Of a stretch of 64,000 bases of DNA, positions 395 through 45,310 are shown piece after piece (position 1 is the first letter of the stretch; each line of letters opens with the position of its first letter). The stretch is from Malacoraja senta (Eukaryota): the NCBI GenBank assembly GCA_038087875.1, contig CM075988.1, positions 11,224,001 through 11,288,000 of the forward strand. Direction: 5' to 3'. Made by a program: the position numbers and the translations under genes. The notes beneath the pieces are model-generated. The model was given only the letters and a program-made list of their open reading frames with translations, made no database searches and was not told the origin of the DNA.

Positions 395-1608
395 TGAGGT
401 CTGACTGTGGGTGCTGTCTGTACGGAGTTTGTACGTTCTCCCTGAGTCCGTGTGGGCTTTCTCTGGCTGCTCCAGTTTCCTGCCACGCTCCAAAGAAGTA
501 CAGGTTTGCAGGTTTATTGGCCTCAGTAAGATTGTGAATTGTCCTTAGTGTGTAGCGTAGTGTTGGTGTATAATAATAATAATAATAATACATTTTATTT
601 GTGGGCGCCTTTCAAGAGTCTCAAGGACACCTTACAGAATTTAACAAGTAAAAAACATATAATCGGAGTAAAATAAATTATAAAGACATCACCAATACAC
701 AAATTAAAGACAGAATTCGATCCAAAGACAAAAAAATCAGAAACACAATGTGAAGAGAGAGCAGCGGCAGCTAAACCGCGCCAGCGTACACTCTCCCTTC
801 CGACAGCCATCTTGGACACAGACTAAATAGTCACTTACACACAAAAATCACCCCCCCACAATGGTTACCACTGTGGGGGAAGGCACAATGTCCAGTCCCC
901 ATCCCCAGTTCTCCCAAAGTCAGGCCTATTGAGGCCTCCGCTATTGCCTCTACGGAGGCCCGATGTTCCTGGCCGTTCACGCCGGGTGCTGTTGCCCCGG
1001 CGTCGGGAGAGTCCTCTCAGCGACTGGGCCACCTGGAACGGCCGCATTCCTTACCGGAGACCGCGGCTTCCGAAGCCGACAAGGCTGCGCCGGTTTGGAG
1101 CTCCCAGGCTCCCGATGTTGAAGTCGGCGCCGCCCGCTCCTCTTCGCAGACCCGCAACCCGGAGGTGTTGAACTCGGCGGTCACAGCTCACTGGAGCTCC
1201 AGCGCGTCGATCCAGCGCGGCGACCCAGGCAAGGCATCGCCCGCTCCGCTCCGCGATAGCGCTCCAGCGCTGTGCCGCCACCGAAGCCAAGGTGCTGGGC
1301 GGTCCCCGCCAGGAAACGGCGCTCCAGGCCCGCTGGTAGGCCACGAGGACGGGTCGACGGGGCAGCCCGGAGAAAAAGCTGCCTCACCGACCAGGTAGGG
1401 ACCTAGAAATATAGTTACCCCCTTCGCCCTACATTAAAAAGTCGATTTCTCCCACAAACAAAACACAGGACTCACTAGAACTACAAAAAAAAAGTGAATT
1501 AAACGGACGGCTGCTGTTTAGCAGCCGTTCCCCAAGATGGCTGGTCGGGATGGACTTGGTGGGCCAAACAGCCTTTTTCCAGAAGAGACTGTGTCTCTAA
1601 AGTCTAAA
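395..1608 (+). mobile_element. HE1-like SINE split into ~395-570 and ~1536-1608 by a nested insertion
   Basis: SINE body (GGTGCTGTCTGTACGGAGTTTGTACGTTCTCCC...) stops at GTGTA and resumes as CTGGTCGG...GTGGGCC...TCTCTAAAGTCTAAAC. Confidence 0.8.
571..1535 (-). mobile_element. GC-rich non-autonomous composite retroposon with L2-type 3' tail
   Basis: 571-640 closely matches the 3' end of the L2 LINE at 6494-6556 ((TAA)n-CATTTTATTT.TGGGCGCCTTTCA...CAAGGACACCTTACAGA). It has a CpG-rich body, a hairpin core at 846-888 and a 9-bp-stem terminal hairpin at 1507-1528. Confidence 0.75.
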
Positions 1609-1659
1609 CATAACATAAGAAATGTTATGTGATAAGAGTAACATTTTGGAGGACCAAGA

Positions 1660-2012
1660 ACCAAGAGGCTGCATATAGAGCATTGCATTCAGTTCTGGGC
1701 ACAATGTTATAGGGAAGAAATTGTAAAGTTGGAAATGGTACAGAGAACACTTACCAGGATGTTGCTAGAGGTGTACAAAATTATGAGAGGAATAGATCTT
1801 GAGGGGCAACATTTTAATTCAGAGGGTGGTGGGTGGATGGCACGAGCTGCCATGGGAGGAAGTTGAGGCTGGTACATTTGAACGGGTACCAGGATAGGAA
1901 AGATTTAGAGGGATAGGGCCAAATGCAGACAGGCCGAACTACTCTAGATGGGACATGTTGGTTGGCATGGGTAAGTTGGGCCAAAGGGACGGCGTCCATG
2001 CTGTATGACTCT
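1660..2012 (+). mobile_element. Degraded CR1 (HER1-type) LINE 3' fragment
   Basis: CAGTTCTGG...CAGAG..TTACCAGGATGTTGC and 3' UTR GGGCCAAAGGG...CCATGCTGTATGACTCT. Confidence 0.65.
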
Positions 2013-3384
2013 ACATAGATTAGTCTTCAGCCATTCGGCCCCTTATGGTCATTCTGCTACTCAGTAGGATCATGGCTGATCTTTTAATTCACTGTCAGAC
2101 TCATGCACTAACCCATATTCTGTTAGATGTCACAAGGTTGGATTTTGTGGCCTTGATTTATTTACATTGGAAAGTATCGATGTGTAAATACACATGGCAT
2201 CCATTCACTGGTGAATTTGATACTAACGTCTCTACCGTGTGAAATATTGTTCATTAGGAGCTGTGTAAGTTGCAGCTTTCTTATTGGATTTGTATTCTCT
2301 GCCATAGGACTGGGGGCCATAAATTTAAATTTGTTCAGATGTGCAGAAATAATAATTCTCAGAAACAGAGTATCAAAACCTAAGCCACCACTACTGGCAC
2401 AACGCTCCCAGCATTCACTCTGTGTACAATAACTTGAATGGCATTTGTGTAGTTATAATATTTTTCACTGTTCATAGCCCTCATTTGTAAGTTTTATTGT
2501 CATTTTTGATTCTGGGATTTGTGGCTATCAAAGAACGTAATATGTTTTCATCATTGGAAATCAAAGAAGTGAATCGGAATGAAAGCACTTTGTAAATATC
2601 ACATTAGGAAATGAACTGTAACAGAGGTTCAATTATACACTGTACTTACTGTGTGTCTCTACAAGTGTCGACTATACATTTCTGCAATAAATCCTTCCAG
2701 TGCAATCAATTGAAAATGTGACACAAGGCTTTATTCCAGTGACAAGCTATAGATCCGGCTTTGATTGTCCAAATAGGTCTATTATAGTTTTGTAAAATCA
2801 AATTCAAATCGCTCCCTCAAGTACACTTCCAGACCCGAGCGCCACCAGCAAGCCTTTGATTTATGCTGAGCTATAAATCAATAAGGAGCTACAGTAATGG
2901 AAATACAGAAGGGCTTAACTCCCTGACTGTCCAGAATTGCTCTTGGACTTGACTAAAGTGAAGGATGATAGGAGAATGGCGCAAGCAATTATTTTACGAT
3001 TGGAGCAGTGGACAAGTGTAAGAAATGTAAATGTGAGTTTCCAGCGTTTTTTCTGAATTGCAATATCTTTTCCTACCATTATGTGCTCCTTCTCGGAGTA
3101 TGTGTATGATGCAATTCCCTACCTTCTGCACTTTCAACAGAAGCGGACGAGTGCAAAGTGTTCAATTTTCCTCTGAGAAGCATCACCTTCAACAAATCAG
3201 TCGGCCAAATTTAGTCTGTCTTCATGCAGAGTGCAAATTAATTAGCAGTGTCTTCAGCCCTGATAAAGACTGAAGGCGTTCTTCGCCATATCCTGTCACG
3301 CTAAATGGGATAGATTGAGAAGAGATACAGCAATCAAAACCAGGTAATCTTGCAACCTCCGACTTAAGAGTTGGAAATAGAATT

Positions 3385-3670
3385 TCAGTTTAGTTTTTAG
3401 TTTAGAGATACAGCGTGGAAACAGGCCCTTTGGCCCACTGAGTCTGCACCAGTGATCCCCGCACACTAACACTATCCGACGCACACTAGGGACAATTTTA
3501 CCAAAGCCAATTAGCCTACAAACCTGTAGGTCTTTAGAATGTGGGAGGAAACTGGAGCTCCAGGAGAAAACCCACTCAGGTCACAGGGAGAACGTACAGT
3601 TTCCATAGAGACAGGATCGAACCCAGGTCTTTGGCGCTGTAACGCAGCAACTGTACCACTGCACCACCAT
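3385..3670 (-). mobile_element. HE1-like tRNA-derived SINE
   Basis: On the minus strand: tRNA-like head (GGTGGTGCAGTGGTA...GGGTTCGATCC), conserved body and (CTAAA)n tail. Confidence 0.85.
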
Positions 3671-4267
3671 GACACACCGTAAAGTGTAAGAATTTTATGC
3701 AATAATAATTTCCATCTGAGGTACTGCATGTGCCCTTACCATCTAGGTGGTGATCCTAAATTAGTTCAGTAGGGAATTAGTTCAGTAGGGAATGTTTGAT
3801 TGAATGAAAGATAAAGCATGAGATTAAGCCCTTCAGCCCATCAAGCCTATGGCAACCAGAAGAAACCCACGCGGGCACAGGGAGAATGTGCAAACTCCAC
3901 ACAGACAGGGTCAGGGTCAAACCCGGGTCTCTGTCCCTGTAAGGCAGCAGGATTACCTGGTTCACCACTGTGCTGCCCTTAATTGTTCAAAATATATATC
4001 AGGACAGCAGGATGTGTAGAACAAACGGCTGCAGTTCTTAGACTCTGAGAGGAAAGGATGGTGGAACTGAAGGAGAGGCGGTGGTAGGTGGAGAGGGGGG
4101 GGAGGAAAAGATCCAGTGATGGGGAGAGTGTATAGGGAGGGGAGAAAAATGTATCGAGGAGATAGGGTCTTGGGGGGGAGTGGGTGTGGTGGGAAGAAGG
4201 CGTTGTGAGGGAGGACTAGAATAGATAGGAGGAAAGAGAAAGGGACAGTTGGGGTGCGTGTTATTTG

Positions 4268-4885
4268 GGCGTAGATTGGGCAGTCGTTTCACTGAACACT
4301 TTCGCTCAGTCTGCCTGGACCTATTTGATCTCCCAGTTGCTAAACCCTTCCCATTCCCACACTGACCTTTCTGTCATGGGCCGCCTCCATTGTCAGAGTG
4401 AGGCTAAATGCAAATTGGAGGAACAGCATCTCATATTTCACTCGGTCAGTTTACAACCCAGTGGTATGATATATTGATTTCCCTAACTTCAAGCAACCCC
4501 TGCATTCCCATCCCTTCCCCTCCCGAGTCGCACCAGCTTCTTGTTCTCACCTAGCCCACGTCTAACGGTGGCCTGTTTCCTTTATCATCATTACTTTTTT
4601 GCATATCCATCATTCATTTGCATATCCATCATCCCCACCCCCTATCAGTCTGAAGAAGGGTTTCGGCCCGAAACGTTACCTATTTCCTTTGCTCCATAGA
4701 TGCTGCTGCACCCGCTGAGTTTCTCCAGCATTTTTGTGTACCATTCATTTATTCTATATCTCTCTACATCACCATCTATATCTCTCAGTTTGAAGAAGGG
4801 TCTTGATCCAAAACATCACCCATTCCTTCTCTCCAGAGATGCTGCCTGTCCCGCTGAGTTACCCCAGCATTTTGTGGCTATGTTC
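4268..4885 (+). mobile_element. Penelope-like element 3' remnant (GIY-YIG C-terminus, 3' UTR, hammerhead-bearing repeats)
   Basis: Frameshifted translation RLGSRFTEHFRSV...LPVA...HSHTDLSVMG.LHCQSEAKCKLEEQHLIF...LQPSGM..DF.NFK resembles the PLE endonuclease C-terminus. Hammerhead-like cores follow at 4650 and ~4790. Confidence 0.8.
4647..4680 (+). ncRNA. Minimal type I hammerhead ribozyme motif (PLE-associated)
   Basis: CTGAAGA-A-GGGT TTCG GCCC-GAAAC-GTT: CUGAnGA box, stem II, GAAA box, palindromic ACGT stem III, NUH triplet. Confidence 0.65.
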
Positions 4886-5109
4886 GGTGGGCCGAAGGCT
4901 TTAGTTCCACACAATTTCTAAACAAATCTAAGATGCTCTCTGTATCGCTGTTTTGCTCCAGCGCGTTTTGTCTACCCCTCTGACACTGCCTGATTTCCTC
5001 AGTTCCTCCAGTTGCTCCTTTTAAAATATTTTACAAGAGTTTAAATATTTGTGTCCATTGCGCAGAACGTCAAAAAAAAAGGGGATAAACACAATTATTA
5101 GAAAGCTTG

Positions 5110-5300
5110 TGTAAGAAGGAACTGCGGATGACGGTTTAAACCAAAGATAAACACAAAAGGCTGGAGTAACTCAATGGGTCAGGCAGCATCTCCGGAGAAA
5201 ATGAATGAATAGGTGACATTTTGGGTCGAGACCCTTCTTCAGACTGAGAGACAGGGGAAAGGGAAACGAGAGATATAGACGGTGATAGAGCGGGATAAAT
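5110..5300 (-). mobile_element. PLE terminal-repeat fragment with decayed hammerhead motif
   Basis: Reverse complement reads CAGTCTGAAGAAGGGTCTCGACCCAAAATGTCACC...GATGCTGCCTGACCC..TGAGTTACTCCAGC. Confidence 0.7.
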
Positions 5301-5742
5301 GAATGAAAGCTTACTTTGCTCATTGGAGCTATTCCCGGACAAAATGCCATGTTGTCATACAGATTGTTAACACAAATAGTTTGTTTCAGTGCAGTACTGA
5401 AGGAATATTGTATTGTCAAACTGTTATATTTAAGTCAAGAGATTAAACCATCTTGAGAGTTATTTGTAACTTCCCACAGTCAATAGATCTGTCAAAACCA
5501 GACAATAAACTGTTTTATGTAACTTAACTAGAGCTGTTTGAGCAATTTGACTACTGACACGTTACAAGCGATTACGCTTCAATTCGAGAGCTATGAATTG
5601 AACCCAAGGATATCCTGAATTTTTAAAAGGAGCAATATACAAATGTTTTACTCTTTCCAAGGCTGAATATTCAATGATAATACGTCAACAAATGAGAAAG
5701 TATTTAATAGAGCACAGAGAATCTAAAATGTTTGAGGCATTT

Positions 5743-5995
5743 TAGAAACATAGAAACATCAAAACATGGAAAATAGATGCAGGATTAGGCCATTCGGCCC
5801 TTCCAGCCAGCACTGCCATTCAATATGATCACGGTTGATCATTCAAAACCAGTATCCCATTCCTGCTTTCTCCCCATATCCCTTGATTCCGTTAGCCCTC
5901 AGTGCTATACCTAACTTTCTCTTGAAAACATCCAGTGAATTCGTCCCCAGTGCCTTCTGTGGCAGAGAATTCCACAGATCCACAACTCTGGGTGA
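5743..5995 (-). mobile_element. CR1 LINE 3' fragment
   Basis: Reverse complement has GTGGAATTCTCTGCC (WNSLP), the CR1 3' UTR and a (TTCTATGT)n tail. Confidence 0.8.
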
Positions 5996-6094
5996 AAAGC
6001 TTAGATTGCTTTATTGCTTATTTAGAATGCGTTATTGTTAACTGAATTACCTTTACAACACCTTAATAATATAAATCTTAATTACCTTTACCAC

Positions 6095-7160
6095 CTTGAT
6101 GCCTCGGTTAGATGGTAGTAGCTACAGGGAGAGGTTGGACAGACTTGGATTGTTTGCTCTAGAAGACTGCAGGTTGCGGGGAAACCTCATAGAATTTTTT
6201 TAAATTATGAAAGCATAGATATGGCAGACAGTAAGAACCTTTTGCCAAGGATGTACAATCTAATTCTAGAGGGCATCAGCTTTAAGGTAAGTGGGGCAAA
6301 GTTTACAGGATGTTATTTTTACATAGAGGGTGAGTGCCTGGAGCACATTGCCAGGGGTGGTGGTTGAAGCAGATACAATAATGGCATTTAAGAGACTTGT
6401 GGATGGGCAAGTGGATATGTAGGGAACGGTGGGATATATATGATGTGCAGGCAGATAAGAGTTGTTGGCATTAGGATCAGCACAAACATGGTAATAATAA
6501 TAATAATGCATTTTATTTATGGGCGCCTTTCAGAACACTCAAGGACACCTTACAGATAAAACAAGCAAATTACAAATATATAAATCAAATGAAACAAAAA
6601 CAACATATCCATGAATTTGATAGAAAGTGGAGTTACGTGGGATAGGCCAGTCTGAATAGGTGAGTTTTGAGGGAGGTATTAAAGGTGGGGAGAGGCTCTA
6701 TGGTACGGATGGATAGTGGGAGAGAGTTCCAGAGGCAACGGGCAGAACGGCTGAAGGCTCCAAACCCCATCGTGGACAGGCGGGCAGATGGAGTGGAGAG
6801 CAGGGAGGAAGAAGAGGATCGGAGAGTTCGGGATGGAGTGTAAGGGTGAAGGAGTTCAGAGAGGTATGGAGGAGCGAGATTGAGGAGGGCTTTGAAATTG
6901 AGGAGGAGAATCTTAAAATCAATGCGGTATTGGACAGGGAGCCAGTGCAGTTATTTGAGGATGGGAGTGATGTGTTCAGTGGATGGGGCTCTGGTGATAA
7001 TACAGGCAGCTGAGTTGTGGACCAATTGGAGTTTATGGATGGACTTGTGGGGTAAACCAGAGAGGAGAGAGTTACAATAATCAATACGGGAGGTGACGAG
7101 GGCAGTGCTGAATGGTAGGCTGAAGGGCCTGTTCTTGTGCTGTACTGTTCTATGTCCTAA
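6095..7160 (+). mobile_element. CR1 (HER1-type) 3' fragment interrupted by an L2 insertion
   Basis: AGCTACAGGGAGAGGTTGGACAGACTTGGATTG... runs to 6493; the tail resumes at 7112 (GGCTGAAGGGCCTGTTCTTGTGCTGTACTGTTCTATGT). Confidence 0.7.
6494..7111 (-). mobile_element. L2-clade LINE, 5'-truncated
   Basis: Minus-strand translation [17 protein letters not shown]...LQLVHNSAA...HITPILK*LHWLPVQYRIDFKILLL..KAL...APPYLSELL is the typical L2 ORF2 C-terminus. (TTA)n tail; ATGGTA repeated at 6488-6493 and 7112-7117. Confidence 0.9.
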
Positions 7161-7279
7161 TTACAAGTATATAATGTACTCTGAAACAGAAGTTTGTAGT
7201 TATAAAATAATTACTGAAAGGTAACCAGAGGTGATCTTGGACATTATTCTACATGTCCAACAAGGAGACTTACTGTTTA

Positions 7280-12321: not shown

Positions 12322-13254
12322 AAAAGTAACATTAGCAAATTTGCTGATGACACAAAGCTGGGTGGCAGTGTGAACTGTGAGGAGGATGCTATGAGGATGC
12401 AGGGTGACTTGGACAGGTTGGGTGAGTGGGCAGATACATGGCAGTTGCTGTTTAATGTGGATAAATATGAGGTTATCCACTTTGGTGGCAAAAACAGGAA
12501 GGCAGATTATGATCTGAATGGTGTCAAATAGGGAAAAGGGGAAGTACAACGAGACCTGGGGGTCCTTGTTCATCAGTCACTGAAAGTAAGCATGCAGGTA
12601 CAGCAGGCAGTGAAGAAAGCTAATGGTATGTTGGCCTTCAGAACAAGAGGAGATGAGTATAGGAGCAAAGAGGTCCTGCAATTGTACAGGGCCCTAGTGA
12701 GACCACATCTGGAGTATTATGTACAGTTTTGGTCTCCAAATTTGAGGAAGGATATTCTTGCTATTGGGGGAGTGCAGCGTAGGTTCACAAGGTTAATTCC
12801 CGGGATAGCGGGACTGTCATATGTTGATAGAATGGAGCGGCTGGGCTTGTATACTCTGGAATTTAGAAGGATGAGAAGGGATCTTATTGAAACATATAAG
12901 ATTATAAAGGGATTGGACATGCTAGTGGCAGGAAACATGTTCTCGATGTTGGGGGAGTCCAGAACCAGGGGCCACAGTTTAAGAATAAGGGGTAGGCCAT
13001 TTAGAACGGAGATAAGAAAAAAACCTTTTCACCCAGGAAATTGTGAATCTGTGGAATTCTCTGCCTCTGAAGGCAGTGGAGGCCAATTCTCTGGATACTT
13101 TCAAGAGAGAGTTCGATAGAGCTCTTAAAGATAGCGGAGTCAAGGTGAGAAGGCAGAAACGGGGTACTAATTGTGGATGATCAGCCATGAATGGCGGTGG
13201 TGGCTCAAAGGGCCGAATGGCCTACTCCTGCACCTATTGTCTATTGTCTATTGA
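12322..13254 (+). mobile_element. CR1 LINE, 5'-truncated (RT C-terminal half plus 3' UTR)
   Basis: ISKFADDTKLGG motif at ~12330; ORF 12592-13119 (LYRALVRPHLEY.VQFWSP...VQRRFTRLIPG...TRGHSL); (CTATTGT)n tail; frameshifted. Confidence 0.95.
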
Positions 13255-15962: not shown

Positions 15963-16004
15963 AGCATGTGCACAGTTCTCAGGTTTGCGAACATTTAATA
16001 CAAA

Positions 16005-17458
16005 CTAGACTAAGTGGGACCCGTTGGGAGGGCTGGTCCCCCAATGCAATATTCCACCTCCACCAATTCCAATATTGATGGCCAGTGGGGGGGGGCTTTC
16101 TGGAGCGCTAGTATGGGTATTGTGGGCTGACGGGACTGGTTTCCAGAGAGCTAGTATGGACATTGTGGGCCAAATGGATTCTTGGGCTGGCAACTCACTC
16201 ACGACTGGTGGGCTAGCAGTTGACTCACGGCTATTCCTTGAAATTCCATTTCAAACAGGGTGCAAGGCCACTAAATTCAAGTGCAGTTTCATGCCACCAA
16301 GCAGGGTGCAAGGCCAGCAAATTCAGGTGCAGTTTCATGCCACTTCAAGCAGGGTGCAAGGCCACCAAATGCTAGCGCTGTTTAATGCCATTTCAAGCAG
16401 GGTGCAAGGCCACCAAATTCAAGTTCAGTTTCATACCACTTCAAGCAGGGTGCAAGACAACCAAATTGAAGTACAGTTTCATACCATTTCAAGCAGGGTG
16501 CAAGGCCACCAAATTCAAGTGCAGTTTCATACCATTTCATGCAGGGTGCAAGGCCACCAAATTCAAATGCAGTTTCATACCATTTCATGCAGGGTGCAAG
16601 GCCACCACATTCAAATGCAGTTTCATACCATTTCAAGCAGGGTGAAACCACCATAAAACCACTATAAAACCACACAAAACACCACATAAACACCACACTC
16701 ACAGTTCAGTAGACATTCAGTGTGTTCAGTTGATTCACAGCTCAGACAGTCGTGACCTCTCCCTCCCCCATCTTGCAGAGACTAAGCCACCCACACTTCT
16801 GTGTTTTATAATCCCTCCTCCCTCCCACCGGAAGGGGCATGGCCTTCATGGCGTGATTGACAGGAGAGAGATTCTCAACATTTTTTTAAACACTAATAAC
16901 ACTTTTATTTTTCATTGATGGGAAGAATCCTCTGCACCTGATGAGCAGCGGGGGACTGAGTAAGATGGCCAAAAATCACAGCTGTACGTGGTAGGGTTTT
17001 ATCTAAAATCAACATACAATGCAAACAGGAAGTTGTCAAGTTTCCACCAACAACCATTTTTGCAGTGCAGCATTTCAAAGCAACCACATTTTCATTTTCA
17101 AACCACATTAAGGGCACTCACAGTAGAGTAGACATGTGTTCAGTGCTATTCATAGCTCAGAGTGACGTGACCCTCTCGCTTCCTCCATCTTGCAGGGACT
17201 GACTGAGGCACAACACTTCCGGGTTTTATAGTCCCTCCCCCCTCCCACCAGCAGGGCAGCGGAGAGAATCTCAAATTTTTAAAAACATTAATAACTCTTT
17301 CATTTTTCATTGATGGGAAAAATCCTTTTGTCCTGCGCAGCGGAGGGGGACTCTGAGTAAGATGGCCAAAAATCACTGCCGTAAGTGGCAACGTATTTTC
17401 TAAAATCATGAAACAGAAAAACAGGAAGTGGTCAAGATTTAACTTTTAGTAATAGAGA
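16005..17458 (-). mobile_element. Non-autonomous Helitron
   Basis: The minus strand starts A|TC (17458) and ends CTAG|T (16005), with no TSD: the canonical Helitron termini and A/T target. Contains a 48-bp array and a duplicated ~340-bp module. A second copy lies at ~58510-59472. Confidence 0.8.
16248..16642. repeat. 48-bp minisatellite (~8 copies) inside the Helitron
   Basis: Unit TCAAGCAGGGTGCAAGGCCACCAAATTCAAGTGCAGTTTCATACCATT; it explains the 16-aa periodic ORFs. Confidence 0.95.
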
Positions 17459-19075: not shown

Positions 19076-19889
19076 TTTTTGAGGCTCAGTTAAGAATTAA
19101 TCAAAATATCCACACCTGAGAGGCCTGAATAAGATGAGCAGAAAGGACATATTAGCCTTTAGCAGCAAATCAAAATTTGGAGGATAGGATAAAATTAATA
19201 TGTTTTATTTCTAAGCATGAGAATGGTGCAACTCGCTTCAGAAAGAGTGGTAGAAGCAAAAACAAAATCATATTTTAAAAATATTTGGGTTGCCACAATG
19301 CACTGAAGCCTACAGGGGTGAGGATGGAAAGCTGGGGATGTGATGTTGGTCACAGTCATACAGCATGGCAACCCAATCGTAAACAAACAAAAGAAGAAAG
19401 GGAATAGACAGGCTGTTGGTGAGGCTGCCACTTATGGCGCCACCCGGTGGTCACCGGGTCACAATTTAAACTCCCATAGCACCACTAGCACATCCCACCT
19501 TGTGCAAAGAAAGGTGACGTTGGGCCTGTTGATGTACGATTCATGTAATTTGCACTGGTCCCACACTGCCCAGAAACTGTTCCATAACATCAGATATCTA
19601 CAGCTCTCCCTTGTTCACCATTGACTCAGCCAATGCTTTCATCTGCCCAATACCTGTCTCTGTATATTCGCACGTGCCACTGGGAGTAACTATGATGACA
19701 ATTTTTGCATTTCTGTTTTTAAACTCTTTTTAGGTTTCTAAAATCTGCAGGATCTCATCCTTTTCGCAATCCTTGTTGTTGCACTGATAGGGGCCGCAAA
19801 CTCTAAAACTGTCTGGAGAAGTGTCTCGATCCGAAACGTCACATATTTCTGTTCTCCAGAGATGCTGTCTGACCCGCTGAAATTCTCCA

Positions 19890-20500
19890 GCCGGGGATTC
19901 CCGTAGAGGAGCTCCGACCACCGGCCCGCGGCCCACATCATCCAGAAGCCGCGGACTGCGATGCTTCCAGCTGGCGTGGCGTCCGGAGCCTGGGATCCGT
20001 CGTTGGGGACCCCGGAGGAGAAGAGCTCCGACCGCCGGCCCGTGGCCTACTTCTAACCGCGGGCGCAGCGGGGACTTACCATTCGGAGCGGGATCCCTCG
20101 CCGGGGATCCCTGGAGAGGAGCTCTGACCGCCGGCCCTGCAGTCTGCGGTGCTTCTGGCTGCGGCGCGGCGGGGACTTTAGATCTTCAACCGCCAGCCTG
20201 CGGCCTACACCATCTTGAAGCCGTGGTCTCTGGTGGGGAAGCACCGATTCATGACTTACCTTGTCTGCACATCTGGATGCCCACAGGGTTGTGGTCCCGA
20301 CCATGGGGGAAAATGGAGGAGGACTGACCAAACTTTGTGCCTTCCACCACAGTGATGAATGCTGTGGTGGATGTTTGTGTCAAATTTTTATTGTGTATTG
20401 TGTGTTCTTTTTTTTTATTGTACCGCTGCTGGCAAGTTCATTTCACTGCACTTTATGTGCACGTGATGAATAAAATTGACTTGACTTGATTTAACTTGAC
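19890..20500 (+). mobile_element. GC-rich composite retroposon, 5'-truncated
   Basis: Reiterated GAGCTCCGACCGCCGGCCC units, hairpin core 20337-20378, tail ATTTCACTGCAC...GTGCACGTGATGAATAAA(TTGAC)n. Confidence 0.7.
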
Positions 20501-26801: not shown

Positions 26802-27344
26802 CAGTAATAGTAAGATTAAACGAGAACTTACCAGTTTGAAGTTTGATCGTTATTTTATGAGGAGTTACGATGAGCGATTACGTGAAGAAGGCCGTCCCCA
26901 CGCGTGCGCGTCAATCTTCAAAGCAGCGGCGTGAAATCACAGATAACAGTTGTTGAACTAACATAGTAAGATTAAAGATGACTAGAACTTCCAGAAAGAT
27001 GGTTATGTTACGAGGGCCGGGAGCGGTGGGCACGTAATCGCTCATCGTAACTCCTCATGAAATAACGATCCAACTTCAAACTGGTAAGTTCTCGTTTAAT
27101 CTTACTATTTTACTTCGGAGTCACGTGAGTGACTACGTGAAGATTTTGAAGCTCTGTGATTTCATGCCGTGAGTCCACACAAGCACAACTGCATCAGTTG
27201 ACCACAGATAAAGGAAACATTCATAATGCATACAGACATGACATAGATTTAATACATGCTGATGCTGATAAATGAACAAATAATAATAATAAAAGTAACC
27301 CCTCTCATCCGAGGGGGAAAACTATGAAATAGAACCTAAAATAG

Positions 27345-28150
27345 AGTTGGCAAATGCCCCTGGTCTGGCAATGGGTTAAAATAAAATGTTTGGAAACCTC
27401 GTATGTTAGACCATCCTGCAGTCGGCAGGATGTGGTCCAGAGGACCATACATAACCCTTGCTGCTGATGTAGTAGCAGCCCTGGTAGAGTGAGATTAGAA
27501 ATTAGTATCTACTCCTGTATGAGCCAGAACCCCGTTTTAAGCAACTGGATGTGTTCTAAACTGATACCTTCTTTTGAGGTTATTAGTAACTAACTACATA
27601 GGTAGTATGAGAGCCTCTAAGGCTCTAGGTGACCTTGACGTAATGTTGTAAACGTGTGACCACACATAACCAAAGGTGCATGGGGTATGCAATGAGAACT
27701 AGTTTGAGACCTGACACCCCTGGGCTACCCTGCGTAAATAAATCGTAAACATGACATATTATATAAGTAGGTATAACCATCCTGTCCAGTCGCAATTTAT
27801 ATAATGACTGGACCCGTTGTGCTGAGAACAGCACCAATGGGATACCTTATGAGCCCCAAGCCCAAGGTAGGGATATAGCTGGAGCCCCCTGGCGAAGCAG
27901 TGTCAACACAATGTCAACATCCCATACTCCGTGTACTTGGGTCTGGGAGAACATGTGTAAAAATATCCTTAATAAACTAGAATCAGAGGGCGAGACCCAA
28001 CAGAGCTGGGTCCCGCTCGCTGCAGCATATATGATGAGAAAGCACGTTGAGCACAGTTAATGGGACTATAACTTAATTTATTGTCAAGGGCCCATAGAAA
28101 ATGAACTCTAAGACGTCGGTGTCTGTGCCGTATTATATGTAACACTATGC
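27345..28150 (-). pseudogene. DIRS tyrosine recombinase remnant
   Basis: Minus-strand peptides LSYSPIN.A..AFS, PRPKY..WDVDIVL, LFSAQRVQSL, LCVV..L..Y and HSTRAATTS...IL..AGWSN...FQTFY (R...HxxR...W...Y), with stops and frameshifts. Confidence 0.85.
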
Positions 28151-28347
28151 ATTAACTGTTATCATGCCCCGTCCAGATACATTCCAAATGACTTCTGAGA
28201 TCCCTGTGAATGCCTTAAAGATCTTTAAAGAAATCAGTTTGTTAGTAACGAAGTAGCATATACTGAAAATCTATGTTGCAAATGTGAGTTTAAATTAATT
28301 ATGAACCGACATCCTCCATCTTTTACAATAAAACAGGCAACGCCTGC

Positions 28348-28704
28348 CATAATTCCGTGCCTGCCTTAAATCACAACTCTGGCCAGATTCGCGAGCCTGT
28401 CTCGAGAGGTGATCCTGACCATAATACTGAGGCTGCCTTGAAAGGCTACTCCGGCCATAATTCTGAGCCTGCATCGAAAGACAACTGGTCAATTCCCGAG
28501 CTTGTCTCGGAAGACAATCCTGGCCGTAATACTGAGCCTGCCTCGAAAGACAACTCTGGCCATAATTCCGAGCTTGTTTCGTAAGGCAATCCTGGCCATA
28601 ACACTGAGCCTGCCTCGAAAGACAACTCTGGCCATAATTCCGAGCTTGCTCTGTAAGGCAATCCTGGCCATAACACTGAGCCTGCCTCGAAAGACAACTC
28701 TGGC
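28348..28704. repeat. 36-bp tandem array (~10 units) with 72-bp A/B higher-order period
   Basis: A = CATAATTCCGAGCTTGTTTCGTAAGGCAATCCTGGC, B = CATAACACTGAGCCTGCCTCGAAAGACAACTCTGGC; unit starts at 28525, 28561, 28597, 28633 and 28669. Confidence 0.95.
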
Positions 28705-30841
28705 CCCAAATCCAAGCCAAGCTTGGTACCCTTGTACTGTGCAATAACAACCCAATCTCATACTATCATTATCATTTGTACAAAAACCAATTTAAATATT
28801 ACCAACTTGTAAATGGTCTACTTACCCCATGTTTCGGAAGAAACAGACCCACCTACCTCCATGGTTACCGGTAGTCTATGGTAAACCCAACGGCCCCTGA
28901 TGTGGGTTCTATTCCCGTCCTTGATTGGAGAGTAGGAATGGTAGTGTATGTGGATTCCATTTCCTGAGACCGGCTTGGACTTTGGCCTCTGCGCAGCTTT
29001 CAAGCTGCCACCAGATTCAGTGAACTGCTTACTGCCCATGAGGCGTGGGGTGTGTCGTCGCCGATACGATGAAGCTTTCTTCGTTGGTAGTACCTTAATC
29101 AGCCCGACACCTTTAGCTTCCTCATCCAGGTATACCTGTTGGATAAGTCGTACCTGAAGAGAAGATTCGGCGGCTGGTTTCATTTCCTCCAATGTCACCC
29201 CTGATAGCGCTGTTCACGGCCGGCACTTGTAGCGTGAGGGCAAACTCTGGCCCCTTCCAGGTTTTCTGCCCACAGCAGTAACCCTTTCGTTTGCGAGTAT
29301 TTCCTTAGAGCCATATGCATGTGCTCCTGTATGTTCCACAGACATACTTTGAATTTGAAGTCAGTTACATACTGACCACTCGCACTCCCCTCCACAGAGA
29401 CGGAGATTCGTAGACAGCCCTGAGAACAGGTGCTGCAGCAGGCCTCTGAGGATACCTGCATCTGACTCAGTTTAAAACTGGCCTCTTACGCTCTCCTCCT
29501 CAGAGAGGGAGACATCAAGCAGCCCTGACACAGATGCTGCTGCCACGGGTTCTCCATAATACCCGGGCTCAGATAGCTCCCTTCTTCGGAACACATCTCT
29601 TTGGAGCAACCTCTCTCCAGATGGGTCAGTCTTCGAAACACACTGCCCATAGAAGGGGGAGAGTCCTCCTGGCCCGAATCCTCGGAGTCCAGGGCCCTGA
29701 CAGACTTTTAGTGGCTTTTTCTCCCCTGCGGGGTAGCCAAGGTGCTCTCTGCCGGCACCAAGTCTGTAGCTGCTGGCTCTACCACCAGTGACTCGAAAAA
29801 GGCGAATTTTGACCGACGGCCGCTACCCGCACTTCCGCGATATCCGTAGCGGGTTCCCCACGGTCCGTGGCCGGGCTTCCCCGAGGTCGTGACCGGGATT
29901 CCCTGCCGTCCGTGACTGGGCTCCCCGCGGTCCTAAAGCCCCGTGGCCCGTCCGGACTTCGCCCCGAATCCAGCAGGCAAGCTCTGGAAGGAGCTTCCTG
30001 CAACACAAAACACAAATCCTAGAAATTAACTTTTAAACTTACCTTTAGGTTTAAACTTACCGCTGGCAGGCTGCAGCGCGCCTACTAGTGTAGCGTTGCG
30101 CAACGCGACAGACGTAATGACGCGCACGCGTGGGGACGGCCTTCTTCGCGTAGTTACTCACGTGAATCCGAAGTAAAATAGCTTGAGTAGATTTCTGCTC
30201 TGTCTTCCCCATCCCCACATTCAATCAATGATGCTGAATTTCTTTTTGAACTCCGCCCGAAAATTCCCGAAAATTACCCAACTTTAGTCGCCTATCTCCT
30301 TTTTCTGCTGGTCACGCCCACTTGCAAGCTAGAGAACTGAGCCGGATTATGGGCAGGAATTACATATAATGAAAAAGCATCAAGGTTTGCAATGACTTTA
30401 CATATTTAGTGAGCCTTGGATACCAGTGATGCCATATTGAGAGTCAAGCAAGCTACCATCTATCCTCAATCATATCCATGCCATAATGTAACAGAAATGC
30501 CAAGAATATCACAATCTATACTGACCAAAGAAAAAATATTTTCACTGTTTATGTGAAGTGACAATTAATTATGATATGCCTATGAGGTTAATTGTGTTAT
30601 TTCCTTCAGTAACCCCATGAGAAATATGTTGCAATCACAAACTTTTTGAGGAAAATAAAATGTCTGGAAAATAATAGATTGGATAATTTATACATGAATT
30701 CAAGCATTACCAAAAGTTGTGATTGTCGGGCTTAATTTGTATATGCAAAAAAATGTGTTAATTGCACACACAAAATAGTGCTGGACAACATCTTTTTAGT
30801 TCTCTTACAGTTCTCTACCAGTAATTCAAACAATTCCCATA

Positions 30842-31907: not shown

Positions 31908-32645
31908 CAGGGGTGCCGAACGATTGGCAGCCCCGCCAACAGTCTGTTTTTTAGTCTTTTAATTTTTTTTGGTGTTTTATAAGTTTGTGTAAATGTTCTC
32001 CGGTTTGTTTTATGTGGGGTGAGGGGGGGGGGAGGGGAAACTTATTTTTTTGTTTCTTATCTTGCCAGAGACGCGATGTTTCCAGGTCGCGTCTCCGGTC
32101 ACTTTGTGGCCTATCATCGATGGGCCTGGAGGCCTCTTCGGACTGACCTTGCGCCCCACCGCGGGGCACGGACTTAATATCGGAGCAGATACCTTGCCTG
32201 TGATCGTGGCCTGCGGACTTACCATCAAGAGCTCGCACTCTCGGGAGATGCTAGTCGGGAACTCCCACGAACGCAGAGGCTCGACCAGCCCCGACACGGC
32301 GTTCGATCGCCCGGCGCGTTGGAGCTGACATCACCCCGATGCAGGAGCTGGATCGCCCCGATCCGGAGGGCCCAAAACGCCACCGGCTACGAGAGTGAAA
32401 ATTGTCCTGTCTACGGAGGGCTCGAGGCCCCCGACCGCAGGAGAGCAAAGGGAAGAGATTGAACTTTTTTTTGCCTTCCGTCACAGTGAGGAATGTGGAG
32501 TCTCTGGGGTGGATGTTTATGTTCAAATGTGTTTTGTGTTTTGTGTTTCTTTTTGATTGACTTGGCAAATGAAATTCCTCGTATGTTGCAAAACATACTT
32601 GGCTAATAAAGTATTATTGTGATTGTGATTGTGATTGTGATTGAT
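31908..32645 (+). mobile_element. GC-rich composite retroposon, apparently full length
   Basis: Head GGTGCC..TGGCAGCC..CCAACAG.CTGT, T-tract, CpG-rich body, hairpin core 32472-32522, tail AAATTCCTCGTATG...CATACTTGGCTAATAAAG(ATTGTG)n. Confidence 0.75.
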
Positions 32646-38167: not shown

Positions 38168-38460
38168 TGGACAGCACGGTGGCACAGTAGTAGAAACGCT
38201 CCCTGACAACAGCAGAGACCTGGGTTCGATCCTGACGAAGGGTGTGTCTGTATGGAGTTTGTACATAATGTTTTTCCCAGGTGCTCCAGTTTTCTCCCAC
38301 ATTCCGAAAACGTACAGGTTTGTAGGGTGATTGGCTTTGGTAAAAATTGTAAATTTTCTCTGGTGTGCAGGATAGTGCTCGTGTATGTGGATTGCTGGCC
38401 GGTGTGTAATCGGTAGGCCGAAGAGCCTGTTTCCGGGGCTGTATCTCTTAACTAGACTAA
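38168..38460 (+). mobile_element. HE1-like SINE nested in a PLE terminal repeat
   Basis: The host repeat CTGAAGAA...CTATTCATGTCCTTCAGAGA (38114-38163) resumes GATGCTGCCTGACCCGCTGAG at 38461. Confidence 0.8.
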
Positions 38461-39134: not shown

Positions 39135-39430
39135 TTTTAGACTTTAGACTTTAGAGATACAGCACAAAAACAGGCCCTTCAGCCAACCAAGTCCGTGCCA
39201 ACCAGCGATCACCCCGCACACTAACACAATCCTACACAAGAGGGACAATTTACAATTTTACCCAAGCTAATTAAATGACAAACCTGTACGGCTTTGGAGT
39301 GTGGGTGGAATCCGGATCACCCAGGGAAAACCCACGCAGTCACAGGGAGAACTGACAAACTCCGTACACACAGCACCTGTAGTCAACCCGGGTCTCTGGC
39401 GCTGTCCAGCAGCTGCGCCATTGTGCCACC
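39135..39430 (-). mobile_element. HE1-like SINE
   Basis: (TTTAGAC)n tail and conserved body on the minus strand. Confidence 0.85.
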
Positions 39431-39944
39431 CTGGTTCTGTTGTTAGATTTCATGAAGCTACTTGCTGAAGTGAATGACAGAGCACAGCTGCAAATGGAAG
39501 TCCAAGAAGTCAGTTTGACCATTGAACTCTGGTGGTACCAATTGGAACTGCTGAGCAGACTTGGCGTAATTCATCCCATTGTGTCGATTTCACCTAGCCT
39601 TCTGATTTATTTGGGCCTGATGTGTATCACTCTGCCTATGTTACAATGAGCCAGTAATTAATTCTCACAATCTCTGCATAAATCGTGTTGAGGAATTTTA
39701 AGCAAGCGACAAAAAAAAATCCTTATTCTTTGGTGGCTGAGGATGAGAAATGTCATAACAGCTGATAATTCTGTGCTGTACCCTGCGTATGTTCACATCC
39801 ATTGTAGGGAGAGTCCATTGATAAAATGAGGCTCAATCTCTAGTGATTGATCAGAGTTTCAGGCAAAACTCCACCAACCATATATTATTATAATTGTAGC
39901 TTCCCATTTGATTTAAGACTAAGATTTGCATAAAACTCACACAT

Positions 39945-40225
39945 TCACACTCTCTCTCATTTTCATTCCCTTTCTCTCATTCCTATTCTCTCCCTCATTC
40001 GTTCTCTCTCTCTCTCCCTCTCTCTCCCTCTCTCCCACTCTCTCCCTCTCTCTCCCTCTCTTTCCCTCTTTCCCTCTCTCTCCCTCTCTCTCCCTCTCTC
40101 TCCATCTCATCCACTCTCTCCCTCTCTCTGTCTCATCCACTCTCTCCCTCTCTCTACCTCTCTCTCTCTCTCCCTCTCTCTCCCTCTCTCCCCATCTCTC
40201 CCCCTCTTCCATCTATCTCACTCTC
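39945..40225. repeat. CT/CCCT polypyrimidine microsatellite
   Basis: ~280 bp of (CT)n/(CCCTCT)n. Confidence 0.95.
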
Positions 40226-40751
40226 TCAATCATTCTTGCTCTTCCTCTTTTTATCTTCTGCAGTGCCTAGGTTTCCTTACAGCAAAATTGTGACATATTA
40301 TTTCTAGGATGGAGAGGACAAGTTGACCCTTACTGTGCAGCTGCCCAAACCTTCTGCAGCATTGCTGCACTTGCTGTCTATTAATGATTATTAAACTATT
40401 AACTTCATCCACATCTACTCAAATGATAAGCATTTGTTATTTTGCTGTGGTTCATTGGTGTGTAATTATTCCCCATCTGGGAAATCTGAATTTCCACTGA
40501 TTTCAGTGGAGATTGGCAATGTATACACCTCTCCCCTGTGCCCATTCTGCTGAGAGATTTGGAGTATTCCCTATTACAACTGAAAACATTTGTTGAGTTA
40601 TACTTGGTTGCAGAGTTGATTCTTCAATAATGCACTGAATGCCTATTCATGGAAAATTGATTGAGATCAATTTAATGGTTAGATGACTCCGTCAGTCTCT
40701 CAATGCTTGAAATACGCAAATTGTCTTTATTATGCAAGTAGACAGAAGGGT

Positions 40752-40885
40752 AGACTGAAGAAGGGTCTCACCCCGAAACGTCACCCATTGCTTCTTTCCA
40801 GAGATGCTGCCTGTCCCGCTGAGTTACTCCTGCTTTATGTGCCTTTCTTCGGTTTAAACCAGCATCTGTAGTTCCTTCCTCCACA
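40752..40885 (+). mobile_element. PLE terminal repeat with hammerhead motif
   Basis: CTGAAGAAGGGTCTCACCCCGAAACGTCACCC...GAGATGCTGCCTGTCCCGCTGAGTTACTCC. Confidence 0.75.
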
Positions 40886-43544
40886 TTCATTATTGAGTGT
40901 TGAATACGACTTACCATGAATCTTGTCTTGGCCCTGTTTATATTCATTGAATTAGCTTTGCTTTGTTGGTTAACGTCCTCCTGTCATTGTCGTTGTCATT
41001 TAGGGAGGCATGAAATGCCACTAATTCCCCTCCCATCCTTGTTTGCTTTGATGCAAAGTGTGAGGTGATGGGAGTTGAGCAAGGTGCAGGGGGCTTCTCA
41101 TTCACACCCACTTATGATGCTTGCTTCAAGTAATCGGTACCTTCATCAATTATAACACACACCCAGCAGCCCTCTTCATGCTCAGTTTGCTTTCATCCCA
41201 GTAATCTATATTAATACCCTTTCTCATCTGTTTCAATTGTGGTGTCTGAGTTGCTTATATTATCTGTGCTGCGATATCCCTCTCTTGTCTATTTTCTGGC
41301 CCGCTATCAGTCTTGGCTTAATTTCAGACTTTGATGGATCTCAAATATTCTGCAGTGGACTGTTATCTGTTGCAGTGATGGTCTGATGTATGTTTTTGAG
41401 GTGTGTGATGCTTCGGGGAATAATTTTATTCCTGTTCCATGCAGCATTTGTAGTTTAACATTTGCCCGTCTGATTCCGTGTCCAGATTGAACAGCATCTC
41501 GCTGTTGTATAGGAGTCTGGAGGAGACTGAACGAGAAGCTAGCAACAACTTAAATATAATTCAGAGAATGTTGGAAACACTCTGCTGTCCAGGAAATATC
41601 TGAGGAGAGAGACACAGAGTTACTCTTTTAGAATAAGAAACAAATGAACTGCTGATGCTGGTTTACAAAAAAAGACACAGTGCTGGCATAACTCAGTGGG
41701 TCAGGCAGCATCCTTGGAGAACATGGAAAGGTGACATTTCGGCATCTATCCATGCTATTTCTCTCTCTCTCTCGCTCGCTTTCCCTCTCTCCCTCTCTCT
41801 CTCTCTCTCTCTCTGACTCATTTTTGCTCTCTCTCTCTCACTCATTCTCGTTCTCTCTCTTTGTCCCTGACACAAAATGTCACCTATCCATGTCTCCAGA
41901 GATGCTGCGTGACACGTTGAGCTACTCCAGCAATTTGTTTCTTTTGCTGTTCTAGATCTTCCTTTGTTGTACTCTCAATTGCATTTGGTGCCCTGTGATG
42001 AGGGATATACAGCATGTTCCTGATGGTCACGGACATTGAGCTGAATGGTACAAGGCTTCAACCTTTGGAGATGCATGTTCATTGAGGTTGCCATCTGCTT
42101 TTACAGCCAGTGTGAGCCGTGCGAAGAAAAACTAATTGGACCCTGAAGAAGATCCTACTTTCTGAGAAAATGTATCGAATGCTTGTAAATGACCCGGTAG
42201 CAGTGCTTTATGAAAATTAATAATGAAGTCATTGCTTAGCAACTGGATGTTTGATATTTCAGAAGCGGTTCCTAATTTTCCTAATGTTTTTTCAGAATTT
42301 TATTGGAGACATTGATATCCAAGATTATTCAATTTCAATTTGTTGTGCACGTGTTCTTATTAAATAAATTGTTGCAGAATAATAGTGCAGGTTATTATAA
42401 ATTTGTTTGTAGGAATACAATAAAATTACAATGCATGAATCCAAAAGGAAGTATCCTTGGCGGAATGCAACGTCAAAAGATTGCAAGTTGTTGGAGTTGT
42501 CATCCATTAGCAATCTTGTCCTGTCCTTGTTGCAAACCCTTGTATAATAAGCATTCAGTTATCATAGGCATGTTAATGTTGTTTCTGTTTTCATTCCTTA
42601 TTAATCACTTTGTGGGAGCGCTCACAGCAGCGACTTGTCTCAACATGTAGCTGCCTTCATTATTAATAATTCCTCTTGATTTCGTTCTCACGAGGGTTCC
42701 AGCTCCCAATCTGTCCTAATCTGTCATGGCATTGACTTCAATTCCTTGGGGTCTACTTGGCCATAAGCAGCATGCATCAAACAATGGTGTATTGCCATTT
42801 ATCCTAGTTTTTGTTCAGGCAGGCAAGGTTAAAATCACAGCCAAAAGGTGAGAGAATTATGCTTATTTTTTGGTTAAGCATTGATGTTGAATTACATTTG
42901 CTGATGGATTACTTAGCACATTTGAATGTTCCTCTTTCGCACACCCCATCCTGCAAAGCTTATTGAATCATTAAAAATGAATTTCACCCCACTTTGTACT
43001 TGCAAATCTGGAATCAAGTGAAATCTAGTGAAATCTTTTCATTTGTTTTTTTATGTGGTATGTTAATCATTCAAAAAGTTAAATGGCAAAACAAATGGGA
43101 TGTTGAATTAGATTTGGTTGGGACTCACATTTTATGGTTGTAAAGAGAGCAGCAGCATCAGCCTTCTCCATTATTTCCCCCTCAAGCTTATGGAAACTTC
43201 TGGAGTAAGTACATGCTGGGAAATGCTATAGTTCTGAAGTTGGTGCCATTGCATTCCCAATTCCTTCACTCAGTGTGTCTGGTTAAACATTCATCTGCAT
43301 GGTACTTTATTTGTACTTTATGAAGATCCATTATTTCTTGCAAAGAATGTAATTGCATTGAAATATAACCAGATGCTTCCAGCCTGAAGTCACATAGTGG
43401 TAATGACATCAGCCAATTATGGGATGATGCAATTATGCACACTGTTCCTTTCGAACATTATTCTTAAGTGGCCTTGCCTTGAAGCATTCTCAGAATGACT
43501 ATGTTTTAATAGCGTGATCTCACAGTTTAGGTTCCTTAGTTAAT

Positions 43545-43775
43545 TCATCGGCGTTGGATGATTTGACTGCCCCGACCACGGGAGAACAAGAGGAAGAAGT
43601 TTGCCTTCCATCACAGTGAGGAATGTGGAATCCACTGTGGTGGATGTTTATGTTAACTTTGATGTGGTTGTGCGTCTTGTTGCTTTTCACTTAGTATGGC
43701 TGTATGGTAACTCAAATGTCACTGTACCTTAACTGCTGTATGTGACAATAAACTGACCTTGAAACCTTGAACCTT
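43545..43775 (+). mobile_element. 3' fragment of the GC-rich composite retroposon
   Basis: Core TGCCTTCCATCACAG...CTGTGGTGGATGTTTATG at 43602-43653; tail TCACTGTACC...TGTGACAATAAA(CCTTGAA)n. Confidence 0.7.
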
Positions 43776-44844
43776 GGTTCCCTGAATTGACTGCATTGCC
43801 TCCAATTTCCTCTCCTCTCAGCCGTCACACCACACAGGTTGCCTCAGGACTCTTGCCCAGATGCCTGGGCTCTGGCCCCTCCAACTCCCACAATAGGTCT
43901 CTGCATTGCAGTGACAGAGGATGCAATGAAAGCACAGAGGGCGAACAGTGGACCCTGGTAGCGGGCTATAACCAATGCCAAATCAACAGGTCAATGGGCA
44001 AACTGATCAGGCCACACAGCATATCTGAAACACTGACCACCTCTGGTGCCAAAGCACACCTGGGCAGTGTTCACCAGAATATTATTCATAAACCAATGAT
44101 CTGATGTGAACAAGGTCATAAAGAGCAGATATCCAGCCTTGAAACAGGCACTTCTGCCCACCTAGTCTGTGTCAACCACCAACAACCTGTTTACATTAAT
44201 CCTGCATCGATCCCTTTTATTCTCCCCACATTCTTATCAATTCCCCTGCCCAAATCCCAACAGCTTCTCCCAATCAACTTCACACCAGGGAACATTTATG
44301 GTGGTCAGATAACTTAGCAATCTGCCAGGTTAATTGGCTACTGTAACTTTCTCATTGTGTGTAGTTGGGATGTGGGAAGTAAATGAAGCATCCAAATGAA
44401 ATCCAGCCTCCTATGCTCCAAATAACTAGTCCCAGATGATAGCTCGAGCTAGTTTGTAAATTGCTCTTTGGAAATCAGTCAAAGAAAATTAAAAAAATGT
44501 TCAGGGAATTTTACACTGAAAAAGATGTTGAATTCATGAAACAGTTTAAATATTTTAATATTTCAGGCTTAAAACAAGTAATGATTAGAATTTACACAAA
44601 CTTAGTATAAAGAAAGTAAAAATAACAATACGTTTGTCAATGGAACTCCTTAATAGCCAGTTTAGTTGATAGTCATTTGGAGGATGCTTGGATGACATTG
44701 TCAATGTAGACACACACCGCACATTCTATTGTTGAAATGCAGTGGGATATGAGTTATTGTTCCTTTAATGGAACATTACCTAACCATGTGCCTTCATGAA
44801 TTTTCCTGGAAACTACTTTATTTTGAGTAGATTTTAAAATTAAT

Positions 44845-45310
44845 TTAGATTCAAGATGCAAGATTCAATTTAATAGTCACATGTACCTATTAAGGCACAG
44901 TGAAATTTAAGTTACCATACAGCTATACTAGGTGAGAAAAACAGCAATACACACATCCACATAAAATAAAATTTAACATAAACATCCACCACATTCCTCA
45001 CTGTGATGGATGGCAATAAGTCATCTTCCTCCTTTGTTCATCCGTGGTGGTCAGGGCTGAACCCTCCGCACTTGCCGTTGCCGACGGTCCACTGTTCAAG
45101 CCCTCTCATCGGGATGATTGAAACTCCGATGTCGGGACGGATTGGAACACTCCGTATAGCATAGAGCTCCTGACTCGGCCGCTTCTTACCGGAGACCACT
45201 GCTTTACGGTGTTAAAATCCACAGGCCCTGCGGTCGGAGCTCCTACACTGGCGATCCTCGGCAAAAGATCCCAGGCTCCGCGATGGTAAGTCCGTGCCAC
45301 ACCCGCGGTA
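44845..45310 (-). mobile_element. GC-rich composite retroposon, 5'-truncated
   Basis: Reverse complement shows GGACTTACCATCGCGGAGC, GAGCTCCGACCGC, the hairpin core (44975-45016) and an AAATTTCACTGTGCC...TGTGACTATTAAA tail. Confidence 0.7.

Follow-up and report, generated by a model that had tools for sequence, protein, structure and literature searches.

A modular, GC-rich retroposon family with differing LINE-type tails in the skate Malacoraja senta

A 64,000-nucleotide (nt) stretch of the Malacoraja senta genome (assembly GCA_038087875.1, contig CM075988.1, positions 11,224,001 to 11,288,000 of the forward strand; hereafter the window) carries five GC-rich elements, E1 to E5, that share a hairpin core and end in different tails of the kind found on long interspersed nuclear elements (LINEs). 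How does one body come to bear several 3' ends, and what kind of element is it? The window is vertebrate DNA, intergenic or intronic, and is rich in repeats, with many copies of a short interspersed nuclear element (SINE) of about 300 bp, presumably HE1-like, together with pieces of CR1-like and L2-like LINEs. The five elements and a head-only fragment, H, lie at the positions and on the strands given by a first reading of the letters alone (the original prediction), and they belong to a family that is real, abundant and modular. Its members and their parts, with the related LINE sequences, are as follows in coordinates of the window.

571..1541, minus: E1, full-length, about 970 nt, inside a ~300-bp SINE; 5' end somewhere in 1536-1542
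1497..1541, minus: E1 head hairpin; folds (z -4.4) and resembles the heads of E3 and H (z 3.7 and 4.1)
1411..1496, minus: E1 T-tract, then G-tract; colinear with E3 31946-32045
886..1400, minus: E1 GC-rich, CpG-rich body; 68% GC, CpG observed/expected ratio (o/e) 0.93
853..885, minus: E1 core hairpin with a 12-bp stem; a depth peak in four of four sequencing runs
735..815, minus: E1 post-core module, beginning CCAAGATGGC; resembles the 5' end of skate L2 and Rex1 consensi that lack open reading frame (ORF) 1
571..661, minus: E1 L2-type tail with stem-loop, AATAAA and (TTA)n; 85% over 88 nt to 6492-6578 (z 14.4)
6492..7130, minus: 3' end of a LINE of the kind with apurinic endonuclease (APE) and reverse transcriptase (RT); ORF2 C-terminus and a ~140-nt 3' untranslated region (UTR) that lacks the core; source of the E1 tail
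19385..19445, minus: H, a head alone with its T-tract; 70% identical to the head of E3 across 70 nt (z 10.3); carries the head motif
19890..20500, plus: E2, 5'-truncated; core 20338-20371, tail A 20437-20474, then (CTTGA)n
19909, 20023 and 20119, plus: E2 internal units, three loose repeats of ~100-115 nt each
31908..32645, plus: E3, full-length; head 31908-31945, T-tract, G-tract 32016-32038, body
E3 3' portion, plus: decayed core 32472-32511, tail B 32572-32610, (ATTGTG)n
43545..43775, plus: E4, 5'-truncated; core 43602-43642, tail A 43718-43752
44845..45310, minus: E5, 5'-truncated; body, core 44985-45015, tail A 44869-44904
47444..47672, plus: solo tail A without core or body, after ~170 nt of unrelated AT-rich DNA; resembles E2, E4 and E5 in their 3' parts (z 4.6-6.1)

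The copies are alike well beyond the hairpin. BLAST joins E4 to E5 (E=9e-32), E3 to E4 (9e-16), E2 to E3 (1e-13), E1 to E5 (9e-6) and E1 to E2 (2.5e-5), and E2 and E5 are 62% identical over 487 nt. With the core removed, the bodies remain similar in nine of ten pairs in a shuffle test (z 3.1-9.8), the sole failure being E1 against the 57-nt body of E4 (z 1.3), and the heads of E1, E3 and H are alike in all three pairs (z 3.7-10.3). Because core-less bodies and heads still match, what the copies have in common is more than the core: it runs from the head through T-tract, G-tract and GC-rich body to the hairpin. A shared core with differing tails had been proposed; the core is present in all five copies, and it is the restriction of homology to that core which does not stand. 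The common order of modules proposed for the two longest copies, E1 and E3, is borne out by their colinear tracts. The bodies are 57-68% GC, and their CpG o/e of 0.81-1.02 compares with 0.61-0.65 in three SINE copies and 0.40 in the window as a whole. Tandem Repeats Finder (TRF) found no tandem array in them, and clear internal units occur in E2 alone among the five copies.

Just upstream of the tails, a 23-nt core motif occurs exactly five times in the window, with 0.02 expected; it was derived from the five copies themselves, and the independent tests are the BLAST and shuffle comparisons. The hairpin folds in E1, E2, E4 and E5 (z -2.1 to -3.4), and when all five copies are aligned, pairing holds in 97.5% of 40 cells, compared with 38-61% when the partners are slid. 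The core is almost free of CpG, so slower decay could account for part of its conservation. In a consensus of public contigs (described below), the majority letters at 851 and 867 bring the E1-type core closer to those of E2-E5. Viral contigs gave no match to the core motif. A single metagenome match lay in bacterial coding sequence without further similarity and was discarded as chance, and an iron-responsive element, with its CAGUG loop, was ruled out by eye, the upper stem being unpaired.

The tails are of three types, as the original prediction described: L2-type in E1, tail A in E2, E4 and E5, and tail B in E3. Each folds as a stem-loop and is followed by an AATAAA-like word and then a microsatellite. 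They begin 59-82 nt from the core in E2-E5, and in E1 the L2-homologous part begins after 192 nt. The 3' part of E1 resembles none of the four others (z -1.4 to 0.6), and the match claimed for it, to a LINE near 6494, is confirmed by the similarity to 6492-6578 listed above. The frame of that LINE matches fish APE+RT proteins at their C-terminus (at E<=1e-10 there are 519 relatives, the best 71-72% identical), many of which carry reverse transcriptase and endonuclease domains; a motif in it suggests an L2. A search for L2 proteins gave three candidates, none confirmed. Tail A is found by itself, too, at 47622-47653; the sequence before it is unrelated and has no other match in the window, and this solo copy is probably a 5'-truncated LINE 3' UTR. 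In the window, then, the E1 tail is partnered by a LINE, tail A by a non-coding solo copy only, and tail B by nothing found; viral contigs held no match to the tail patterns. Tails A and B may have a Rex1/Babar origin, although no comparison linked either of them to Rex1. Such a source is plausible because Rex1 coverage is reported to be highest in rays, among others, in the part of the CR1-group survey used here (PMC13343379).

The core did not turn up as an ordinary part of a LINE UTR in any place where it was sought: it is absent from the 3' UTR of the LINE at 6492-7130, from the ~170 nt before solo tail A, and from the first 400 nt of ~1,000 CR1-group consensi, our published comparison set (PMC13343379 supplement). 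All five copies have a tail and microsatellite and three of the five are 5'-truncated, the marks of retroposons made by target-primed reverse transcription. The different tails on one body therefore suggest that the family is carried by more than one kind of LINE.

Is the combination in E1 a single accident? E1 sits inside a SINE whose two halves end at about 1536 and resume at 570, with ~5 nt lost, and two contigs from other loci (X1 record 8 and X2 record 24) cease to match at 1541 and 1542. When the contigs of four public runs (three organism codes) were aligned to 560-1620 at 80% likeness, 6,030, 11,506, 5,198 and 261 contigs aligned per run, of which 1,212, 2,064, 238 and 5 were at least 99% alike. 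Bridges between modules were read among the 32 pieces listed. Head and body are joined in X1 record 8 and X2 record 24; body, core and module in X18 record 9 (organism D); core and module in X2 record 19 (depth 121); and module and L2 tail in X1 record 1 and X2 record 17, which probably represent one other locus with 27 differences. Eighteen loose ends at 733 continue into the stem of the L2 tail (10 of 11 nt), a variant with a shorter spacer, and joints from 636/648 to 743, which lead from module to tail with the spacer skipped, are a hint at most, their sides being just 28-30 nt. In organism A all modules stand at depths well above those of single-locus contigs, and the core bin peaks in all four runs; the summed depths (15,000-190,000 in X1, compared with 3.5-7 for single-locus contigs) should not be read as copy numbers. 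In organism C nothing covers 1460-1531 and cover is thin at 1136-1171, which we do not use as evidence of absence. Because thousands of diverged contigs align and some of them bridge modules, E1 represents a multi-copy subfamily and not a one-off chimera, and the suggestion that core-tail combinations recur as multi-copy subfamilies holds for the E1 type, which is found at other loci and in other organisms. Words from E3 were found in 23 of 24 listed sequencing rows, which do not indicate the part of E3 that matched; nine of these rows, from six studies, have shares of 0.21-0.43, and no RNA holder is listed among them.

Several observations on individual copies may be recorded here. E1 contains a perfect 12-nt inverted repeat, a YY1/TISU-like word, at 1532-1543 and 804-815, pairing its 5' end with the post-core module; the 5' arm overlaps the junction with the host SINE and could represent either microhomology at that junction or a piece of the head. 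The ATG of the post-core module opens a hydrophobic frame of ~70 codons that runs to the tail (598-810, minus), possibly by chance in T-rich DNA; L2 relatives of the 6492 element likewise begin with hydrophobic N-termini. The truncated 5' end of E2 adjoins one copy of a short palindromic (hairpin) repeat family found at 47794-47978, 56624-56834, 19811-19891 and about 20 more sites. By its geometry, H could be a 5' piece of E2 that was turned around; 445 nt intervene, of which just 79 are a known repeat.

Where, then, does the shared 5' unit come from? Among the CR1-group consensi, TGGCGCCG occurs in 35 rows, and the 11 of these that were listed are all Rex1 5' ends. A head motif, GG[CT]GCC-N4-8-TGGCNGCC, is exact in five of these 11 Rex1 rows and has one mismatch in three more, each followed by a T-rich tract as judged by eye; within the window it occurs in the heads of E3 and H only, with 0.01 expected. 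H agrees with the lamprey row PetMar_Rex1-1 at 17 of 22 positions, the differences being confined to the 5-nt spacer. A second head of LINE type follows the core of E1, where CCAAGATGGC is accompanied by a CTCTCT and T-rich run at 815, closest to LeuEri_L2-1, and the 3' half of E1 thus resembles a bipartite L2, made of an L2 5' end and an L2 tail. An opening (A)AGATGG or AAATGG, of the kind that the E1 module has, was seen in two of five L2 rows and 10 of 17 Rex1 rows of little skate. AAGAUGG is given as the centre of the TISU/YY1 element, which is active in both transcription and translation start, in the portion of the source consulted (PMC2518114). The head, then, looks LINE-derived, from a Rex1 or L2 5' end. 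The remainder of the unit has no such counterpart in the consensi: five core or body words have no match in the first 400 nt of the ~1,000 consensi, skate and stingray included, TGCCTTCC has six matches there with the core after none of them, and in the Rex1 rows read the head passes into coding-like sequence without G-tract or body.

The original prediction saw no RNA polymerase (Pol) III boxes, and in keeping with this no Pol III head, tRNA gene or relevant Rfam family was found. The heads of E1, E3 and H have no A+B box pair, though this test is weak, since on control SINE copies the patterns recovered the B box in one of two and the A box in neither; E1 also carries loose internal A-like and B-like matches. 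We reject a ribozyme or other known RNA, there being no Rfam match, and a protein origin of the body, there being no Pfam family at the cut-off and no success among 563 candidates. What remained was a chance match and a spurious antisense ORF, encoded by one unrelated contig that carries another copy with the same body and core start as E3 and gives no information on the tail. The proposal of a non-autonomous, non-tRNA composite retroposon with differing 3' ends is therefore supported, one of those ends coming from the LINE at 6492-7130.

We suggest that the family is probably a non-coding retroposon that is transcribed by Pol II from its LINE-type head and copied in trans by a LINE protein that recognises the borrowed tail. 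The 5' unit would consist of a head acquired from an ORF1-less LINE of the CR1 group (the 5' end of a Rex1 or L2), the two tracts, a loosely repeated GC-rich body and the hairpin. Pol II would start at a putative promoter in the head, and the RNA would end at the borrowed tail with its stem-loop, AATAAA and microsatellite. L2/CR1-type proteins recognise tails strictly. The ORF2 protein of the matching LINE would bind the tail and insert the copy by target-primed reverse transcription, which would account for the 5'-truncated copies. New tails would be joined in the U-rich linker directly behind the hairpin, most likely by a template switch in which a reverse transcriptase that had started on LINE RNA jumped to the family RNA; successful joins would then spread as subfamilies, and E1 would have gained a whole short L2 derivative, 5' end and tail together. 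As for the hairpin, it could be a cis signal required whatever the tail, an idea we hold at a little less than even; otherwise it is merely the slowest-decaying, CpG-free part of the element. More speculative is the wider picture of a Pol II passenger superfamily, built on a Rex1/L2 5' end and numbering tens of thousands of copies in rays or skates, in which the hairpin serves both as a tail-independent mobilisation signal and as the docking point for tails, and one RNA body has passed between the L2 and Rex1 machineries; the strategy would resemble that of CORE-SINEs but dispense with the Pol III head. Taken as a whole, we consider this possible and somewhat doubtful.

A number of results weigh against this account. 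The hairpin of E3 does not fold (z +1.6); nine of its ten stem pairs can still form, two of them as G-U, and one is a mismatch. The compensatory change reported in the original prediction is there (C-G in E1, A-U in three others), and it falls short of significance as covariation, involving one pair of ten and being equalled in 90 of 500 shuffles. The head match covers ~20 nt, was made by eye, and uses a motif written after both sets had been seen; E1's own head does not fit it, and the AAGA with which the LINEs start is missing from the heads of E3 and H. Core and tail B are combined in one copy only, E3, so that a multi-copy subfamily of this type does not follow, and tails A and B could both belong to a single clade as variants of its tail (E2 and E3 compared in their 3' parts, z 3.7). 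The window holds no Rex1 coding remnant, and E1 has no target duplication at its insertion in the SINE. Among the pieces listed, none spans core to L2 tail, and the two contigs that join module and tail cease to match at 824, short of the core.

The best-surviving alternative, which we consider unlikely, is that the copies arose by internal deletion, as bipartite elements, from a single unseen LINE. The long 5' UTR of that LINE would contain the hairpin along with the head, tracts and repeats; tails A and B would then be subfamilies, and only E1 would show a true swap. It draws on the resemblance of the head to Rex1 and L2 5' ends, on the similar layout of tails A and B, and on the 100-500-bp repeated subunits near the 5' UTR that some ORF1-less CR1-group LINEs are described as carrying in the part of that survey used here (PMC13343379), to which the three ~110-nt units of E2 may be likened. 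However, the absence of core and body words from the consensus starts, the Rex1 rows without G-tract or body, and the solo tail A without a core all speak against it. Less probable still is that E1 is two adjacent elements, a core-family copy and a short bipartite L2 that often inserts or recombines behind it, in which case swapping of tails across clades would be adjacency only. The LINE-type start of the post-core module is what one would expect here, depth dips over the linker at 812-847 in X1 and X2, and in a contig covering 619-824 from another locus, the place expected for the core is taken by 92-102 letters that have no match. Nevertheless, the T and G tracts inside the head dip equally, bridges between core and module occur in two organisms (X2 record 19 and X18 record 9), E1 forms a single block in its host SINE, and no tail A or B remains behind its core. 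Very improbable, finally, are chimeras in which every insertion joins a plentiful non-coding RNA of the host anew to a LINE 3' end and no copy gives rise to further ones: the junctions do cluster behind the hairpin, and WEIRD-MGL chimeras have the same layout and site-specific switches in the excerpt available (PMC2104539), but copies that are 60-75% alike with lineage-specific variants fit many propagating subfamilies and not one host gene, the tails are short and of fixed length instead of random LINE pieces, and there is no Rfam match.

The window has other features outside the family. The segment at 26806-30180 (minus) has inverted repeats at 26806-26884 and 27031-27109 (97%) and at 30118-30180, a 36/72-bp minisatellite at 28335-28718, a 22-bp minisatellite at 29843-29933, broken frames and two ORFs without a Pfam match, a layout that we take to be DIRS-like. 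Another element, containing a 48-bp minisatellite, has two copies on opposite strands at 16010-17420 and 58600-59450 (minisatellites 16246-16644 and 58995-59249), with a common end motif that recurs at 16962, 17359 and near 58665. A CpG-rich segment at 57600-57950, with no BLAST relation to the family, is possibly a promoter or another repeat, and CR1-like LINE remnants lie at 49520-50520 (minus) and 12532-13119 (plus), one of which retains an RT domain (E=4e-21).

If the trans-copied, LINE-headed retroposon that we favour is correct, a large share of the 'unknown' GC-rich repeat in this fish lineage would be one structured retroposon family, and the tail exchange known from Pol III SINEs would extend to a LINE-headed, probably Pol II element. 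One body with three tails would offer a naturally occurring test of how LINE proteins select RNAs and of why conserved middle domains persist. The copies would also scatter promoter-like, CpG-rich DNA (o/e 0.8-1.0) through a genome whose window here stands at 0.40.

How does the family compare with known systems? Our literature search found no description of it, most subscription papers and Repbase Reports lying outside its scope, as did Repbase and Dfam, which may hold it; the strategy of tail swapping itself is already known. SVA and LAVA elements of primates use L1 and poly(A). They are composite and non-coding, with a GC-rich, repeat-bearing body and a 3' part that differs between SVA and LAVA (see PMC5174737), whereas the present family has CR1-group-type stem-loop and microsatellite tails and no target duplications. 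The SVA-like design that had been proposed is thus apt as an analogy, and the features of SVA membership fail on tails, on target duplications and on the missing TRF array. The MINE chimeras of Magnaporthe also combine a non-coding RNA with a LINE 3' end, through template switches at preferred sites, and as excerpted they are 33 mostly one-off chimeras (PMC2104539), in contrast to a large, diverged family with fixed short tails.

CORE-, V- and Deu-SINEs, as treated in the part of Ohshima 2013 consulted (PMC3747384), follow a comparable strategy, a conserved middle combined with tails of L2, L3/CR1 or RTE; they have tRNA or 5S heads, none of which was found here, and we liken them by layout and not by sequence. 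Of the CORE-SINE-like composite that had been envisaged, the swapped 3' end holds, but not a free core between unrelated parts, since head, body and core travel as a unit. BuceSINE and ManaSINE2 of birds, in the passages of Suh et al. 2016 used here (PMC4844689), resemble E1 in having a GC-rich, non-Pol III 5' part and a bipartite LINE tail, made of a 5' UTR piece and a 3' UTR. There the AviRTE tail is constant and the heads vary, whereas here the 5' unit is constant, the tails vary and the partner is L2-type.

Because the head looks LINE-derived, the family appears nearer to bipartite non-autonomous LINEs than to CORE-SINEs. The former, among them RTESINE, WALLSI3, MAR4, RIME and NARTc, likewise join a LINE 5' end to a LINE 3' tail without encoding a protein, are thought to be transcribed by Pol II, and include a described case of tail exchange (ERE4B), all as set out in the extract of Kojima 2018 at hand (PMC5786205). 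That extract gives the sources of ORF-less bipartite elements as RTE, Ingi, Vingi and R2 only, and if our reading is right L2 and Rex1 would join these four clades. A plain scheme of 5' and 3' parts from one LINE with nothing between fails for the whole element, body and core words being absent from the consensus starts, and may hold for the 3' half of E1 alone (571-815). Compared with the bipartite LINEs of that extract (PMC5786205), the parts of the present family look Rex1/L2-derived, and a GC-rich body of 400-500 nt and a hairpin stand between them.

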